DNA of 64,000 nucleotides from Tequatrovirus BCH953P2. The stretch's first letter is position 1. The number at the start of each line of letters is the position of its first letter. Positions 26,083 to 47,905 of the stretch are shown one piece after another. Below the pieces are notes generated by a model. That model worked only from the letters and a program-made list of their open reading frames with translations. It was not told where the DNA came from and did not search any database. The stretch lies in sequence record OZ035785.1, one strand, 5' to 3'. A program made the translations under genes and the position numbers.

Positions 26083-27422
<1,340 letters not shown>

Positions 27423-27521: not shown

Positions 27522-27722
27522 ATGGTACAAAAATTAATGGCACTTGTTAATGCCATCAAAGGTAATAAAAAGCGTATAGCTTTTACTATTTCTGCTATGG
27601 TAGGAATTTTACTCTGGAACTTTATTTTATCACCTGTTGCAATTGCGCACGGTGTTAATATTCCAATAGTTACTCTTGATACATTCGTAGATTTAGCATT
27701 TGCTTTAGTTGGGTTAATTTAA
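27522..27722 (+). CDS. Small plus-strand membrane protein (66 aa)
   Basis: Strong RBS AAGGAGG 5 nt before ATG; late-promoter-like GATAAATA at 27495-27502; two hydrophobic segments; stop overlaps gene 61 stop. Confidence 0.6.
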   Translation: MVQKLMALVNAIKGNKKRIAFTISAMVGILLWNFILSPVAIAHGVNIPIVTLDTFVDLAFALVGLI

Positions 27723-28747
27723 ATCTTAGCATATTTAGATAGCCGCATTTTAGCCATTAACCCCTGGGCAATATTATTTTTCATATATTCCATAATTTGT
27801 TCAGGGGTTGCACCTTCCTTTTTAATCATATCATTAACATCTTTTGATTTCCAGGGAGATTTATCCCAAAACATAACCCTTTCTCCTGCATCAACTAATT
27901 TAGTCATTCGTTTGATAGTGTCAGGGTGACGAGGTTCATTATCTAAGACCCACACTCGTCTATCTTTAAATGGAACAATTTCTAGGTCTAATTGACCACC
28001 CGTAATAGCTATACCATTTTCAATAAAAAGTGAATCTATAGGTCCTTCTAGAACATATACATCACCATCTTTAACTCGTTCGACTCCATAGATTTTTGTT
28101 GCCTCAGGATAAGCTTTGATGGTGATATATTTTTGAGGAGCATCTTTCTTTAATGCACGTCCTTGAAAAGACTCAGCTTTTCCATTAGCATTATAAATTG
28201 GAATAACAAGACGAGGCTCAGGTATTTCCTTTTTATATGTTCCCGGTGCTATGCTATTAACCAATTTAGGCCATTCGGTTGTAAACCAAAGATATTTCCA
28301 TTTATCCTTTGGAATACAACGAGCTTTTACGTATTTTATAATTGGATGGTCTTCCGCCAGTTTATCTAATCTAACACATGACGGAAGAGATTTAATTATT
28401 TTCTTCTCAGGTTGTTTAGGAAGTTCTTTAGGTTTTTCTACTGGACGACTTTTACCTTTTTCTTTTCTTATTTCAAAGATATACTCACGATATAAATCAG
28501 GTTCAAACTCCTTTAAATATATTCCGATTGGTGCATGATAGTTACAGTTATAACAATGAATATTTCCTTCATTATTATCACCATAATACCATCCACGGGC
28601 TTTATTCTGGTCGGTTTTTGAATCTCCACAAACTGGGCATCTAAACCGTAATTTAAAAGTTGAACTATTATTTACTTGTGTGAATTTAGGTAAATGAGCT
28701 AATGCACGGTATGCAAACTCATTATCAATCCAAGGTATTGATGACAT
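27719..28747 (-). CDS. 61: gp61 DNA primase
   Basis: 342 aa (T4 gp61 is 342 aa); zinc ribbon CPVCGD...CYNC; Toprim region. Confidence 0.9.
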   Translation of the reverse strand: MSSIPWIDNEFAYRALAHLPKFTQVNNSSTFKLRFRCPVCGDSKTDQNKARGWYYGDNNEGNIHCYNCNYHAPIGIYLKEFEPDLYREYIFEIRKEKGKSRPVEKPKELPKQPEKKIIKSLPSCVRLDKLAEDHPIIKYVKARCIPKDKWKYLWFTTEWPKLVNSIAPGTYKKEIPEPRLVIPIYNANGKAESFQGRALKKDAPQKYITIKAYPEATKIYGVERVKDGDVYVLEGPIDSLFIENGIAITGGQLDLEIVPFKDRRVWVLDNEPRHPDTIKRMTKLVDAGERVMFWDKSPWKSKDVNDMIKKEGATPEQIMEYMKNNIAQGLMAKMRLSKYAKI

Positions 28748-28749
28748 TT

Positions 28750-28914
28750 TTACTCTTCTTTTTCTTTAGATTCCTCTTTTTTCTTTTTAGGAATCTGTTC
28801 AGGACCTTTATTTACTACAGCGCCTGACGTTGTTCCAGTAGAGATATTTTCAGGACTACCACCTGAATCTCCAGCGACCATATCTTCTTTGATAAATTCT
28901 TTATATGTTTTCAT
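28750..28914 (-). CDS. Small hypothetical protein (54 aa)
   Basis: MKTYKEFIKEDMVAGDSGGSPENISTG...; start lies in a duplicated junction sequence. Confidence 0.5.
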   Translation of the reverse strand: MKTYKEFIKEDMVAGDSGGSPENISTGTTSGAVVNKGPEQIPKKKKEESKEKEE

Positions 28915-28915
28915 A

Positions 28916-29269
28916 TTAACCTCTATTCATAAAAGCATTAAAAATTTGGTCATCAATAGATGGTGCAGTAATATTTTCTGCATCATTTAGCAAATCATTA
29001 ATTTCATCAGATAGCATAACACGTGTACCTTTATTTCCTGTAATTGTTACTGCGCAATTACGAACGTTTTCTTTATTAAATTTTAGGTTAATATTTTCGT
29101 AATGAAAATCCTTTAATGCTGAATATATTTTTAAAATAAAATTATCTTTTACTACAATAAACCCAACCTCACTATTAAAACGTGGTTCATGGAAACTGTA
29201 ATAAACCTTTTCATCTATAAAATCGTATGATTTTTTCCATTTTTAAATATGAAAATTCAAACTATACAT
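28916..29269 (-). pseudogene. Decayed partial paralogue of the downstream 210-aa gene (in-frame TAA after 8 codons)
   Basis: Reads MYSLNFHI*KWKKSYDFIDEKVYYSFHEPRFNSEVGFIVVKDN...IDDQIFNAFMNRG; C-terminus nearly identical to ...IDDQIFNAFMNKG of 29271..29903; flanked by ~50-bp direct repeats. Confidence 0.55.
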
Positions 29270-29270
29270 A

Positions 29271-29903
29271 TTAACCTTTATTCATAAAAGCATTAAAAAT
29301 TTGATCGTCAATAGAAACTTTTACTTTAGGCTGTTCTTCAAACGGTAATTCATATCCACATATTACAATTTTGTGATCGATACCAAAATACACAGAAGCA
29401 ATATTATTAATATTATTTTCAGTGAAATCTAAATCAACATCAATATCTTTTTGACTAACGCTCAAAGGATAATTAATACGAATAATTCGATTATCTTTAA
29501 CAAAGATTCCACCGACATACTCTGTGCTGCGTTTAAAGTTTACACGTTTCCTAAATGAAAAATATTCAGGTTCTTTATGGGCTCGACTCATAGGGCTTAA
29601 AGTGTATTCCGAATATGAAATATCAAATCCTACACCTTCAATATGAGCCAAAGTATCATGATTAAACCAATTATAATCGTATGCCAAATCCATTAAATTG
29701 TAATATGTGAAAGGCACCGGATTAACATCATATGTTGTACCTTTAAAATCTGCCCAGGCAACGATTTCGTTATCTTTAACAATTACAAAAATTGTGCCAA
29801 TAAGATATCTACGGTTATTTTCATCAGGTGTTATATTATAACATTGTGCATCAGGAAATTTACCGTATTTAAACGGTGGATTTTTGTGCATATAATAAAT
29901 CAT
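29271..29903 (-). CDS. Hypothetical protein (210 aa); position of T4 61.2
   Basis: Minus-strand ORF between sp and 61; donor of the duplicated C-terminal segment. Confidence 0.65.
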   Translation of the reverse strand: MIYYMHKNPPFKYGKFPDAQCYNITPDENNRRYLIGTIFVIVKDNEIVAWADFKGTTYDVNPVPFTYYNLMDLAYDYNWFNHDTLAHIEGVGFDISYSEYTLSPMSRAHKEPEYFSFRKRVNFKRSTEYVGGIFVKDNRIIRINYPLSVSQKDIDVDLDFTENNINNIASVYFGIDHKIVICGYELPFEEQPKVKVSIDDQIFNAFMNKG

Positions 29904-29904
29904 A

Positions 29905-30198
29905 TTATTCGCCTGTGATTTCGGTTACGATATTTTTGTTATTAAAGTTTTTATCGCAATACAGAACATAATTATACTGCATTACACCACCAGACTTAAG
30001 CTGTTTTTGCACTTCAGCTTTCATTTCAGGACGATCGCGCTCAACGATATTCATAATATCTGCTTCAATTTGGGTTTCAACCTCAGTCTGATCTGCAGTC
30101 ATAGACCATTCACATAAATCTTTATCATAGCCTGCCATAGCAGGCTGAGCAGCACAAGAAGCTAAAGCAAAAATTGTAGCAAAGATAAATTTTTTCAT
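29905..30198 (-). CDS. sp: Spackle (periplasmic lysozyme inhibitor, superinfection exclusion)
   Basis: 97 aa with signal peptide MKKFIFATIFALASCAAQPAMAG; size and position as T4 sp. Confidence 0.75.
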   Translation of the reverse strand: MKKFIFATIFALASCAAQPAMAGYDKDLCEWSMTADQTEVETQIEADIMNIVERDRPEMKAEVQKQLKSGGVMQYNYVLYCDKNFNNKNIVTEITGE

Positions 30199-30258: not shown

Positions 30259-30558
30259 TTATTTTAAAACTTTTGCGTAATCACATGTTACAAACTGTTT
30301 CTCTAGCTTAACGATCTTACGAAAATACCTTTTACACTGACGAATCTGTCGCTTCGTAGGACGTACAGCAAACTTAATAAATTCCACTCTACCAAATGGA
30401 GGGCTTTCTTCTGCTGGAATATCTAGCACCAATTCCCATGTATCTGCAATAAGTGCTTTGAATTGCGTATTTTTCCTGACGTTATACGGAGTGGGTTTAA
30501 ATAAAACAATATGCATATTATCCTCGGCAATCCACTTCACATACTTTCTTGTCATCAA
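30259..30558 (-). CDS. Hypothetical protein (99 aa, or 85 aa from MHIVLF...); position of T4 61.4
   Basis: Basic protein between sp and 41. Confidence 0.55.
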   Translation of the reverse strand: MMTRKYVKWIAEDNMHIVLFKPTPYNVRKNTQFKALIADTWELVLDIPAEESPPFGRVEFIKFAVRPTKRQIRQCKRYFRKIVKLEKQFVTCDYAKVLK

Positions 30559-30712
30559 TGAAAGCTTTAACTAATGCTTTATTAACTTCAGCATACTGAG
30601 TAGTAGCCCATTGAACGTCATCTTTCATCATTGTGATTTCTTTAGTAAACATGCTTTCATTCTTAAACCACCCCATAAAAACTACCTTTACCAATTCCAT
30701 AACAATCTCCAC
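30518..30712 (-). CDS. Hypothetical protein (64 aa)
   Basis: Early promoter at 30731-30759 and RBS upstream. Confidence 0.5.
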   Translation of the reverse strand: MEIVMELVKVVFMGWFKNESMFTKEITMMKDDVQWATTQYAEVNKALVKAFIDDKKVCEVDCRG

Positions 30713-30730: not shown

Positions 30731-30759
30731 CTATACCATAGTCTTGTCAGCTTGTAAAC
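30731..30759 (-). promoter_or_regulatory. T4 early promoter
   Basis: GTTTAC ... TATGGTATAG on minus strand, directly after gene 41 stop. Confidence 0.55.
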
Positions 30760-32186
30760 TAAAATTTTAATTCATTTGCCAAAGCATCTAACTGAGCTCG
30801 AGCTGATTCGTTTCTTTGATAGCGATTCTGTTCAGCCTGAATCTGTTGTGAACCTGCTACTTCGTTCACTTCAGTTGGAGTAGAATCTTGTTCAATTTCT
30901 ACCCATTTCTGATTTCCCTTTTGAACACCCATCAAAAACTTATTCCATTTGTTCTTATCGCCATATCGTGATTTGATTTGCTTAATGAGTTGTTGTTCAG
31001 CAGCTGCTAGCTCCTCGGTTTCAATGACCGCAAGCATAAAATCAGCTGTTGCTGGAAGACCAGCAGATTCTGCAATATCGCTCATGTTAACATCGGAAGA
31101 GTCCCAAGCTTGTTTACCAACCTGTGCTGCAGTCCAAAGAACAGTTTCGGTTTCAACAGCCAGAGCACGCAATTCCTCGGCAATAGCTTTAACAGTTGTG
31201 TAACTATTTTCTGAATAAACTCTAATGCGGCAAGATTTACAAATACCTAGATAGTCGACAATAATGATTGTTGGAACAAAATTCTTCTTGAGCTTCAATT
31301 CGTTTAAAAGTGATCGAAATGTATTAGCGTCTGCTCCACCAGTAGGATACTGTTTAACGATTAAACGACCAAGGGTAGATTTCTCACGCCATTTTTCCAT
31401 TTTTCCTTTATATTCAGCGTAAGAAATATGTCCATCATCAATATCGTCAAGAGAAACATCGAGCATGTTAGCATCAATACGTTTAGCACAGACTTCTTCT
31501 GCCATTTCCATGGAGATATAAAGAACGTTATGACCAAGCTGCAAATAATCTGCTGCTAATGAACAAAGTCCTAATGATTTACCAACGTTAACGCCAGCCA
31601 TTAAAACGTTCAGTGTTCCAGTCTCAGCTCCGCCTTTAGTAATTTTGTTTAGAATTCTGAGTTTAAATGGAACCTTACGAGCTTTATTCATATAAGATAG
31701 CCAACGCGCTTCGTAGTCATCCATCCAATCATGACCAACGTAACTATCAAATGAAATAGATAATGCCTGGCGCATGATGTCAGGAATAGCACCTACATCT
31801 GGCATTTTCTTATTTCGTTTTTCCGGAGGAAGCTCAGCATTAGTTTGAATTTCGATTATTTTAGACGTAGCATTAAACATCGCCCTTTGCTGAACATATT
31901 TTTCTGTTTCTTTTATTAACCAACTGTGGTCTTCCGGAGAATCAGCCAGTTTTGAAATAAGTGTTTTTACACCAGAATATTCTGTTTCAGTAAATGAACT
32001 ATTTTCTAATGCAACATTTAACGCATTAATAGATGGAACGCTATGATACTCATTAACATGAGATTTAATTAATTTGAATGTATTTTTAGCTGGACCACTT
32101 TCAAAATATTCTGAATCCATATATGGCCAAACTTTTGAAAAATAAGCTTGATCAAATATGAGATGAGAAAGAATAATTTCTACCAC
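30759..32186 (-). CDS. 41: gp41 replicative DNA helicase (DnaB-like)
   Basis: 475 aa (T4 gp41 is 475 aa); Walker A GVNVGKS. Confidence 0.9.
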   Translation of the reverse strand: MVEIILSHLIFDQAYFSKVWPYMDSEYFESGPAKNTFKLIKSHVNEYHSVPSINALNVALENSSFTETEYSGVKTLISKLADSPEDHSWLIKETEKYVQQRAMFNATSKIIEIQTNAELPPEKRNKKMPDVGAIPDIMRQALSISFDSYVGHDWMDDYEARWLSYMNKARKVPFKLRILNKITKGGAETGTLNVLMAGVNVGKSLGLCSLAADYLQLGHNVLYISMEMAEEVCAKRIDANMLDVSLDDIDDGHISYAEYKGKMEKWREKSTLGRLIVKQYPTGGADANTFRSLLNELKLKKNFVPTIIIVDYLGICKSCRIRVYSENSYTTVKAIAEELRALAVETETVLWTAAQVGKQAWDSSDVNMSDIAESAGLPATADFMLAVIETEELAAAEQQLIKQIKSRYGDKNKWNKFLMGVQKGNQKWVEIEQDSTPTEVNEVAGSQQIQAEQNRYQRNESARAQLDALANELKF

Positions 32187-33791: not shown

Positions 33792-34634
33792 TTAATCAAC
33801 TGCTATTGGATGAATAGCATTAAACTTATGAAATGCTTCTGATTTTTCTTTACGCGAAACACACATGCGAAGAACCTTTAACGGCTCGTCTTCTTCACCC
33901 AACGATTTTCGTTTTTCAATATTAGAAGTTTTCCAACGAGCTTGCTCTGGAAACTCTCTATTGATTTGTTCAAGCGCTCTATTATGTTTAGAATTACTGC
34001 GAATTGAACTGCACCCGCCAGGAGCTTGTGCTTTTCCAGATACAACCAGATATTTGAACAAGGCCAAATGCGGATAACCTTGATTAATTAAATTGAGAAA
34101 TGCATACATATCTTCGCATAAATCAATTTTTCCATACCCAATTTGTTCTGTGGTAAGTTTTCCGAGGTCATACCATGTATTCGTGAATCCGTATGAATTT
34201 TCACGATAATTACCCCAAGATGAAGTAATTTTAAAAATTGGTAGACGAGCATGACCGTGATAATACCCGCAATCCATGGCATCTTCAACGTATTGAATCA
34301 ATTCATAGAACTGTTCACGAGTTAATTGATTAATTTTATCTACACATCGGCGATCATCTCTTTTTCGCATTGAACTCATACGAATAGTAGTATCATCGTC
34401 AATCATCCAGATTCGTTGACCTGCATACATATCAGTAATTGCTTTACGAGTACCGGCAATTCCATTTACATCATCAGGAATAGTTACAATTTTAGCTCTA
34501 GACCCATAGGCATCATAATAAGCTTTTTCTTCGTGTTCACGCACTACAATATGTGGTTCATAATCAGTCGGAAACATATCAAGGGCAGAAACTGCCCCTA
34601 CACGTTGATAGCTTGGAATTACGAATTGAATCAT
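33792..34634 (-). CDS. Putative DNA-modifying glycosyltransferase (GT-A-like, DXD motif), replacing T4 beta-gt
   Basis: 280 aa with RIWMIDDD; T4 beta-gt is 351 aa, so this is a different enzyme, possibly the T2/T6-type beta-glucosyl-alpha-glucose transferase (inference). Confidence 0.55.
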   Translation of the reverse strand: MIQFVIPSYQRVGAVSALDMFPTDYEPHIVVREHEEKAYYDAYGSRAKIVTIPDDVNGIAGTRKAITDMYAGQRIWMIDDDTTIRMSSMRKRDDRRCVDKINQLTREQFYELIQYVEDAMDCGYYHGHARLPIFKITSSWGNYRENSYGFTNTWYDLGKLTTEQIGYGKIDLCEDMYAFLNLINQGYPHLALFKYLVVSGKAQAPGGCSSIRSNSKHNRALEQINREFPEQARWKTSNIEKRKSLGEEDEPLKVLRMCVSRKEKSEAFHKFNAIHPIAVD

Positions 34635-35271
34635 TTAAGTGCCTTACATTTGTCAAAATGGTATCTTGTCATATTTGGCCCACGTCCTTTTAGTCCGCAA
34701 TGCGGACATATTTTTTCTATCAAATTATGAGGTTTTCCTTTACGATTTTTAGACATCGTTTCTTTAATTATTTTAGCTTTTTCTGCGCCAAAAATTTCTT
34801 CATAAGTTTTACCAGAATTTTCCTTTGCTCGATTTATAATTCCATATGCCTGCTCATTTTTACCATACATTGGATTACCTTCGCCTTTCATTCTTTTAGA
34901 ATGATCAGGACGCTTGATTCCACGAAAGGCATTTCCGCACTTATATCTTTCTTCTGGAGATAGTTTTTACCGTACATTCCATTTAATTTGCCTGGAAAAC
35001 TTCCTCCCCATGCTTCATTCTTTAAATTATATGAATCCGGACAATTAGCAGCATCTAAACAAGTTAAAATAATTTCTTCAACCTGTCTAAACATTGGTCC
35101 TTCATATAATATTTCTTTATTAAAGGATTTTATTCCATATTTCTTTTTAGCATGTTGCCAAACTACACCCGAACCATCATAATTCGGGTTGTGACCATCA
35201 TGACTTCCTATATACCACTTTTTAGTTTTAGGATGTTTATACTTATAAACATGTGGCACATTTACTTCCAT
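34631..35271 (-). pseudogene. GIY-YIG homing endonuclease gene split by a 1-nt frameshift
   Basis: N-terminal ORF 34888..35271 has YKYKHPKTKKWYIGS; C-terminal frame open 34631..34966 has repeated G-x-x-x-GK-x-H motifs and a CPHCG zinc finger; frames join if the T5 run at 34964-34968 gains one base. Confidence 0.65.
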
Positions 35272-42662: not shown

Positions 42663-42688
42663 ATTTTATAACTAATTAAATAAAGCAA
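42663..42688 (-). promoter_or_regulatory. MotA-dependent middle promoter for gene 45
   Basis: Minus strand TTGCTTTA (MotA box), 12-bp spacer, TAAAAT. Confidence 0.5.
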
Positions 42689-43276: not shown

Positions 43277-43331
43277 GTTTTTCCTCCACAGAGATTATAC
43301 TCTAATAAATTAAAGCATAATCTCTTATAAA

Positions 43332-47879: not shown

Positions 47880-47905
47880 TATTTTACCAAAAATTTATAA
47901 AGCAA
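47880..47905 (-). promoter_or_regulatory. MotA-dependent middle promoter for alpha-gt
   Basis: Minus strand TTGCTTTA (MotA box), 12-bp spacer, TAAAAT. Confidence 0.55.

Follow-up and report, generated by a model that had tools for sequence, protein, structure and literature searches.

A probable frameshift null allele of a half-size adfA paralogue in Tequatrovirus BCH953P2 and the repeated gene junction around it

Results

Layout of the locus

The window analysed here is a stretch of 64,000 nucleotides of Tequatrovirus BCH953P2 (sequence record OZ035785.1), a T4-like phage with about 97% identity to its nearest sequenced relatives. Between gene 41 (helicase) and gene 61 (primase) it carries the dmd-tifA-sp-adfA accessory island, and directly downstream of adfA, the gene of a protein of 210 amino acids (aa), lies a reading frame that is broken near its start by a premature stop codon. 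In other T-even phages, an intact gene of 118 codons is found at this place of the gene 41-61 accessory cluster, between sp and gene 61.1. We consider it likely that positions 28916-29269 of the window are a frameshift null allele of this conserved short gene, a paralogue of the C-terminal half of AdfA, and that the repeat at its two ends is a gene junction module. All genes of the region are on the minus strand (Table 1).

The repeat at the ends of the short gene is direct and 49 nucleotides (nt) long. In a repeat search its copies were identical at 46/49 positions (94%) with a spacing of 355 nt, and the window has exactly two occurrences of its 37-nt core, compared with 0 expected from 100 shuffles. 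An earlier note, made from the letters alone, had described a repeat of ~50 bp here; two copies are indeed present, while the end coordinates that it gave, 28962 and 29316, overshoot by 1-2 nt.

Table 1. Positions in the window of the disrupted short gene, its lesions, the repeat copies and the neighbouring genes
Feature	Position	Strand	Remarks
Disrupted 118-codon gene (RB32ORF033c type, PHROG 4122)	28916..29269	minus	354 nt between the repeats
1-nt deletion	29259..29260	minus	relatives AGTTCTGAA, window AGTT-TGAA; C lost, frame shifts after codon 3
Premature TAA, codon 9	29243..29245	minus	inside the 29-nt frame-shifted stretch
2-nt deletion in A6T3 run	29230..29231	minus	relatives GGAAAAAATTTCA, window GGAAAAAA--TCA; TT lost, 29 nt downstream
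Residual 33-codon open reading frame (MLSDEINDLLNDAENITAPSIDDQIFNAFMNRG)	28916..29017	minus	first start codon past the stop; conserved tail only
Repeat copy A	29267..29315		last 14 codons of adfA (SIDDQIFNAFMNKG), TAA stop and overlapping ATG of the 118-codon gene
Repeat copy B	28912..28960		last 14 codons of the 118-codon gene (SIDDQIFNAFMNRG), TAA stop and overlapping ATG of gene 61.1
Middle-promoter-like motif (TGCTTTT, 12-nt spacer, TAATAT)	29268..29292	minus	in repeat copy A; pattern match
Middle-promoter-like motif (TGCTTTT, 12-nt spacer, TAATAT)	28913..28937	minus	in repeat copy B; pattern match
adfA (gp61.2), 210 aa	29271..29903	minus	intact; Pfam PF23813, 462 bits
Gene 61.1, 54 aa	28750..28914	minus	intact; start codon inside repeat copy B
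Gene 61, primase	27719-28747	minus	
sp	29905-30198	minus	
61.4/tifA	30259-30516	minus	
dmd	30518-30700	minus	
Gene 41, helicase	30759-32186	minus	

The short gene encodes a relative of the C-terminal half of AdfA

From its sequence, the 210-aa gene is gp61.2, that is, the anti-DarT factor AdfA (Pfam PF23813), and its counterpart in phage Ec_O157kw is annotated as 'anti-DarT factor A'. The intact 118-aa orthologue of the neighbouring frame scores 31.9 bits against PF23813, at profile positions 113-211 only, and the window's own translation after the stop scores 31.3 bits, at positions ~126-211 only. Both lie above the gathering score of the family, which is 27. The full-length architecture of AdfA, with ~208-216 aa covering the whole profile, is not reached by the 118-aa protein, which matches the C-terminal half only; against PHROG 4122, in contrast, the short gene matches end to end (E=2e-72). 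BLASTP aligned the intact 118-aa orthologue to residues 111-210 of the window AdfA with 37% identity over 106 residues (E=6e-11). In profile-profile comparison with hhalign, the 118-aa protein matched the AdfA C-terminal half with a probability of 98.6% (E=1e-15), whereas its match to the N-terminal half was non-significant (7.8%). The agreement of Pfam, BLASTP and profile-profile matches argues that the paralogy is real. The earlier note had seen a homology between the intervening frame and the 210-aa gene and had proposed a pairwise alignment of 28916-29269 against 29271-29903 as a check; the homology holds, and the product of the first segment aligns significantly to that of the second. By these comparisons the 118-aa protein is a half-size, single-domain paralogue collinear with the C-terminal half of AdfA, and no AdfA orthologue. 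A weak DNA match (repeat family D2) links the first codons of the short gene to AdfA codons about 90-97.

The family as a whole is narrow: a collection of 1.84 billion proteins has only 10 representatives of it at 50% identity. A Foldseek search of BFVD with the 118-aa model returned T-even proteins only, of 118, 212, 157 and 145 aa, and no solved structural relative of the AdfA family was found. In the literature searched, we found no mention of RB32ORF033c. A VK(D/N)N-x-I hairpin motif recurs in each half of AdfA, and the AlphaFold model of the protein runs through strands and then a helix twice. An internal duplication in AdfA, of which the 118-aa protein would be a single repeat unit, was considered and rejected, as hhalign related the two halves to each other with only 8-11% probability.

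Conservation and age of the short gene

In phages JK1, NR1, O157kw, SA21RB, AV120, T2, GiZh and Lutter the counterpart of the short gene is 357 nt or 118 codons long, intact and annotated, namely as a hypothetical protein in JK1, NR1 ('HY01_0032'), SA21RB ('RB32ORF033c'), AV120, GiZh, Lutter and T2. The gene is present in ~298 phage records, with an intact copy in about 290 of the sequenced relatives, and of those read each save FL12 has it intact, with 118-119 codons. Matches in the protein collection were all 118 aa long, and one cluster at 90% identity alone comprised 205 member sequences. Among intact copies, pairwise ratios of nonsynonymous to synonymous divergence (dN/dS) were 0.02-0.33; judged by these ratios, the intact short gene is under purifying selection. 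A junction in which sp is directly followed by the short gene, without adfA, was found in 141 phage records, T2 included, and the T4-type junction, in which adfA is directly followed by 61.1, in 222 records. In T2-type genomes the short gene is the sole gene of the AdfA family; in T2 itself (AP018813.1, locus L022, 4026-4382) the intact 118-aa AdfA-family paralogue lies directly downstream of sp.

Outside their tails, the two paralogues have diverged far. Over 78 alignable codons, the bodies of the short gene and AdfA share 33% of their amino acids and 46% of their nucleotides, and synonymous sites (dS) are saturated, while the 14 tail codons of the short gene are 93% identical in DNA to those of adfA. 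The uniformly low divergence expected of a recent tandem duplication is thus not seen. In the genus Gaprivervirus, phages VR25 and VR7 carry an orthologue of 119 codons, and the VR25 copy has 42% aa identity to the Tequatrovirus short gene at a dS of 1.7. Since the short gene is nearer to this VR25 orthologue than to its neighbour AdfA, the duplication is older than the split of the VR25 and Tequatrovirus genera. Divergence and distribution together describe an ancient paralogue that is widely conserved.

Two small deletions that probably break the gene in this phage

Translation of the minus strand at 28916-29272 reads MYSLNFHI-stop-KWKKSYDFIDEK...SIDDQIFNAFMNRG-stop (it begins MYSLNFHI-stop-KWKKSYDF and ends NAFMNRG), exactly as the earlier note had it, premature stop included. 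Compared with the states of the intact gene at the two lesion sites, AGTTCTGAA and AAAAAATTTC, the assembled consensus sequence, from which the lesion was read, has a net change of -3 nt, and the original frame is regained after the second deletion. Both deletions are discrete and lie in sequence that is otherwise identical, in comparison with every aligned relative. The 1-nt deletion after codon 3 would shift the frame so that the ribosome meets TAA at codon 9, and the 2-nt deletion in the A6T3 run would return the old frame too late, leaving no full-length product; adfA and gene 61.1 would stay intact beside the null allele.

Between the premature stop and codon 86 there is no in-frame ATG, GTG or TTG. 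The 33-codon remnant that follows matches the Pfam AdfA profile in the tail only and below threshold, and it is probably unexpressed. The locus hence looks like a pseudogene, with intact orthologues under purifying selection, a disrupted frame and no alternative start to rescue it. After computational repair of both deletions, one substitution, C84R, was left in comparison with SA21RB, whose gene is the nearest relative of this copy, and from this single change it follows that the inactivation is either very recent or an artefact. A translational bypass over the stop of the gene 60 type was also considered and rejected: in a check by eye, the only downstream ATT was out of frame and ran into TAG, and the arrangement is conserved in no other genome.

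The allele appears to be unique. An 86-nt query over both lesions, searched against 50,697 phage records, matched 287 of them; the best 15 of these 287 were all 86/89 matches with three extra bases, and no shared or intermediate allele was found by BLAST among these best 15. The exact 56-nt sequence had no occurrence in IMG/VR, JGI metagenomes or GTDB genomes. In phage FL12 (PP400786.1, locus L023, 337-693) the A6T3 run carries an independent -1 change (A6 to A5), and only the 33-codon remnant is annotated there. Because FL12 was hit there independently, the run may be a recurrent site of either frameshift mutation or sequencing error.

The repeat as a shared gene junction

Each repeat copy is made up of the last 14 codons of a gene (SIDDQIFNAFMN-K/R-G) together with its TAA stop and, in overlap (TAATATG), the ATG with which the following gene starts. 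The last tail codons, AAAGGT or AGAGGT, form the Shine-Dalgarno sequence of this following gene. The tail peptide, S-I/V-DDQIFNAFM-N/K-R/K-G/D, is invariant in several T-even genera over three diverged subfamilies that occur in the slot, i.e., AdfA with 208-216 aa, genes of 117-125 aa and genes of 145-167 aa (PHROG 8539). Synonymous positions of the tail vary between genera (GAT/GAC, CAA/CAG, GCT/GCC/GCA, TTT/TTC), which argues that the peptide is the primary constraint. AlphaFold models place the tail in a C-terminal helix of its own, of low confidence and preceded by a low-confidence linker; for the 118-aa protein, with a mean pLDDT of 80.8, the domain before the tail, five strands and a helix, was modelled confidently. 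As modelled, the invariant tail would fit a docking motif.

Within the window, the two tails have identical degenerate codons at 10/12 places compared with 6.5 expected from an invariant peptide and the window's codon usage (P=0.03), and their dS is 0.35 compared with 1.5 between orthologous tails of different genera. In the VR25-type Gaprivervirus genome L009, the two tails differ at 1/39 positions, and the orthologous tails of VR25 differ from them at more. These values suggest exchange between the two gene tails. We hence ascribe the near-identity of the 49 nt to an invariant peptide, overlapping expression signals and, probably, tail exchange, but not to a young duplication; the repeat would then be a junction module that the 3' ends of both paralogues have in common, rather than the scar of a recent event.

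With respect to expression signals, the pattern TGCTTYW-N11-13-TANNNT, which resembles a MotA box with a -10 element, matched the window 23 times compared with 5.3 expected, an approximately 4-fold excess, and the annotators of phage Lutter marked both tail motifs as 'promoter'. On the coding (minus) strand lie 16/23 of the matches, consistent with T4 middle promoters, and further sites are found at 42663-42687, 43294-43317 and 47881-47904. We found no terminator-like hairpin within the repeat or beside it, and a scan of the region for sigma-70 promoters and terminators was uninformative.

Presence and absence variants of the slot

T4 lacks the short gene and aligns to the window up to 28960, then resumes at 29267. 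With the alignment broken at these positions, the difference between T4 and the window is exactly one 355-nt repeat unit. The single tail of T4 aligns to both tail copies of the window; at three distinguishing positions it has the states of the short-gene tail (GAT GAC ... AGA) and not those of the window's adfA tail, as would be expected after a crossover close to the 5' edge of the repeat. The slot is filled by adfA only in T4, by both genes in the window and by the short gene only in T2, and since adfA and the short gene share this end module, these variants break inside it. Recombination between the tails may thus make and remove cassettes.

The T2-type junction retains AGAGGTTAGTATG, a remnant of a tail. 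A microhomology account of the adfA loss in T2-type phages was tried as well, and no clean breakpoint could be reconstructed. In VR25-type Gaprivervirus (loci L008/L009, 1523-2357) and in loci L013-L020, the slot is filled by other genes in tandem, 145-167 aa and 117-119 aa in size, and these end in DDQIFNAFM(N/K)R(G/D) with a TAATATG-type overlap.

Specificity residue of AdfA

AdfA binds DarT1, and a single residue change, R164H in the RB69 protein, switches binding on (PMC11257639). RB69 position 164 is equivalent to residue 168 of the 216-aa form, H165 in T4, N167 in the window AdfA and N72 in the 118-aa protein. In the C-terminal half of AdfA, it lies on the helix that follows the sheet; this half is the part that the short gene duplicates. 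Codon 167 of the window adfA (29403-29405, minus strand) encodes Asn; the residues reported for this position are His, which neutralises DarT1 and is found in T4, and Arg, which is inactive and is found in RB69. The Asn allele is common, with 94 member sequences in its 90% identity cluster (P0006).

Other features of the window

Between dam and gene 61, the window has a 186-aa open reading frame (26862-27422, minus) and a 66-aa open reading frame (27522-27722, plus) with hydrophobic stretches. Both are found between dam and gene 61 in AV120, JK1, SA21RB and T2; T4 is without either there. Between gene 42 and beta-gt, a GIY-YIG/seg-like gene (34631-35271, minus) is split into reading frames of 127 aa and 86 aa by a 1-nt deletion in a T6 run near 34969, where AV120 encodes one protein of 213 aa. 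This split is either genuine decay of the homing endonuclease gene or an error in the homopolymer.

Discussion

The window probably holds a broken copy of a gene that is intact in nearly all relatives read, provided that the break exists in the phage and not merely in its consensus sequence. A consensus or base-calling error in an A/T stretch, with an intact 118-codon gene in the actual phage, is an alternative with an appreciable, though clearly smaller, chance of being right. The 2-nt deletion sits in the homopolymer context of the A6T3 run, where the FL12 frameshift could equally be an error, and the same assembly has a second homopolymer frameshift (T6 to T5, ~34969) in the accessory seg-like gene. 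The allele moreover appears unique, since the best 15 of 287 matching records are without the deletions and the environmental and genome collections gave no hit, and the rest of the gene is nearly undecayed. The 1-nt deletion, on the other hand, removes the C of TTCTG, where there is no homopolymer, and two independent consensus errors 29 nt apart would be unlikely. Over 47 kb aligned to AV120, core genes are without any frameshift, and the only other discrete frameshifting coding indel is that in the homing-endonuclease-like gene. A/T runs are, furthermore, the classical natural frameshift hotspots of T4 replication (Streisinger slippage), textbook genetics that we count against an error. On balance, we take the deletions for a real null allele, with good though not overwhelming confidence, and they might have arisen by replication slippage.

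Other accounts of the locus fare far worse. The earlier note took the short frame for the decaying extra copy of a recent tandem duplication, which would have covered 355 nt at the 3' end of the 210-aa gene. Tandem order, collinear homology and a 94% identical repeat at both ends of the unit would all suit this, yet outside the 49 nt the DNA identity drops to 46% with saturated dS, and orthologues of the short gene exist in Gaprivervirus as well as in the adfA-less T2-type genomes. Neither does the copy look like a decaying spare: elsewhere it is intact, selected and, in T2-type phages, without any other family member, and in the window it equals the gene of an intact relative plus two small deletions and one amino-acid change. 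On these data of divergence and distribution, we hence regard a recent duplication as practically refuted. Hardly more credible is a functional product from the disrupted locus, be it the 33-residue tail peptide (ATG at 29017) or a re-initiated, N-truncated protein. The frame is restored past the stop, the 33-codon frame retains the invariant tail and AAAGG precedes its ATG by ~10 nt. The spacing of this ribosome-binding site is poor, however, no in-frame start is available up to codon 86, the predicted five-strand sheet and the helix with the AdfA-164-equivalent residue would be lost, and no other genome save the frameshifted FL12 keeps such a form. Finally, direct repeats can mislead assemblers, and the earlier note had raised a collapse or expansion at the repeat that would make the extra 355-nt unit unreal. 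This can be practically dismissed, since 49 nt is shorter than any read length and the two-gene layout with both repeats recurs in well over 100 phage genomes, including that of RB32, which were sequenced independently from 2006 onwards and on different platforms.

If the frameshift null allele of the short gene is accepted, what the intact protein does may be approached through AdfA. By analogy, the most economical reading would make the 118-aa protein a stand-alone toxin-binding inhibitor with a different target. In a wider and rather doubtful model, the sp-61.1 slot would be a cassette array of AdfA-type toxin-binding domains that share one module for docking and recombination, with the 118-aa protein as an inhibitor of a toxin other than DarT1 and the A6T3 run as a switch. 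The tail peptide would then be a flexible invariant helix by which every family member attaches to a single shared partner, and the ~49-nt module a portable junction where homologous recombination lets T-even phages acquire, drop and exchange cassettes. T2-like phages described as lacking adfA would have an unrecognised AdfA-family member in the 118-aa protein, and slippage at A6T3 would repeatedly give null alleles, as in the window and FL12.

Several points weigh against parts of this picture. DarT1 binding was shown for the related AdfA only (PMC11257639). T2 was described as being without adfA, and T2 lacking adfN was sensitive to DarTG1 (PMC11257639); as T2 (AP018813) has an intact short gene, the 118-aa protein alone appears to be no shield against E. 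coli DarT1 and, arguing across strains, is probably inactive against it. The evidence for tail exchange consists of 14 codons, and codon bias explains most of their identity. The MotA-type middle promoter in each tail is a candidate that comes from a pattern match.

Taken by itself, the feature is one accessory gene of one T4-like phage that is broken, or mis-sequenced. Its context is of more use. The 'hypothetical protein' that several hundred T-even genomes encode between 61.1 and 61.2 is a half-size AdfA relative that keeps the domain with the specificity residue. T2-type phages, treated in the literature as adfA-less, have just this short form, and three diverged subfamilies of the slot have the C-terminal peptide in common. 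BCH953P2 and FL12 would be natural knockouts of the short gene. For T4, an 'anti-TA island' (toxin-antitoxin, TA) has been proposed in which dmd acts against RnlA, tifA against ToxN and adfA against DarT (bioRxiv 10.1101/2022.04.14.488369). The short gene, the T2-type layout and the shared tail are concrete candidates for mapping anti-toxin functions in this island.

Comparison with known systems

The closest known counterpart is AdfA itself (T4 gp61.2, PF23813; LeRoux laboratory, PMC11257639 / PMC11825919), which occupies the same slot between sp and 61.1. The 118-aa protein resembles AdfA ~111-210 in sequence and predicted fold, including the helix of R164H, shares the identical C-terminal tail DDQIFNAFMN(R/K)G and has the same narrow distribution. 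It differs in being half the size, without the ~110-residue N-terminal half, and in being probably inactivated in the window. The 145-167-aa genes of the VR7/VR25 type (PHROG 8539) and the 117-125-aa genes of Gaprivervirus likewise lie downstream of sp, often in tandem, and have the same invariant end peptide and TAATATG-type overlap as the window genes. Foldseek links them to the 118-aa model with E values of 1e-4 to 1e-11. Their bodies, in contrast, are very diverged, their Pfam AdfA matches cover the tail only and stay below threshold, and they are absent from the window.

The arrangement also recalls the PeSL cassettes in hyperplastic regions of T4-type genomes (PMC2839356, PMC4122927), in which a short repeat of expression signals likewise bounds an optional gene and provides the indel breakpoints. 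PeSL repeats, however, are non-coding and consist of an early promoter and a stem-loop. As the window repeat is coding (14 codons), has no stem-loop that we could find and looks like a middle promoter instead of an early one, we do not regard it as a PeSL. In T4, recombination between short homologous stretches is known to amplify or delete segments of the region, as in the amplification of dmd-tifA (bioRxiv 10.1101/2022.04.14.488369 / PMC9391042). This concerns the same island and the same kind of event as we propose for gain and loss of the 355-nt unit. The dmd-tifA amplification was observed in the laboratory at microhomologies of 6-10 bp, whereas the window offers a homology of 49 nt, at which natural variants point to events of this kind.

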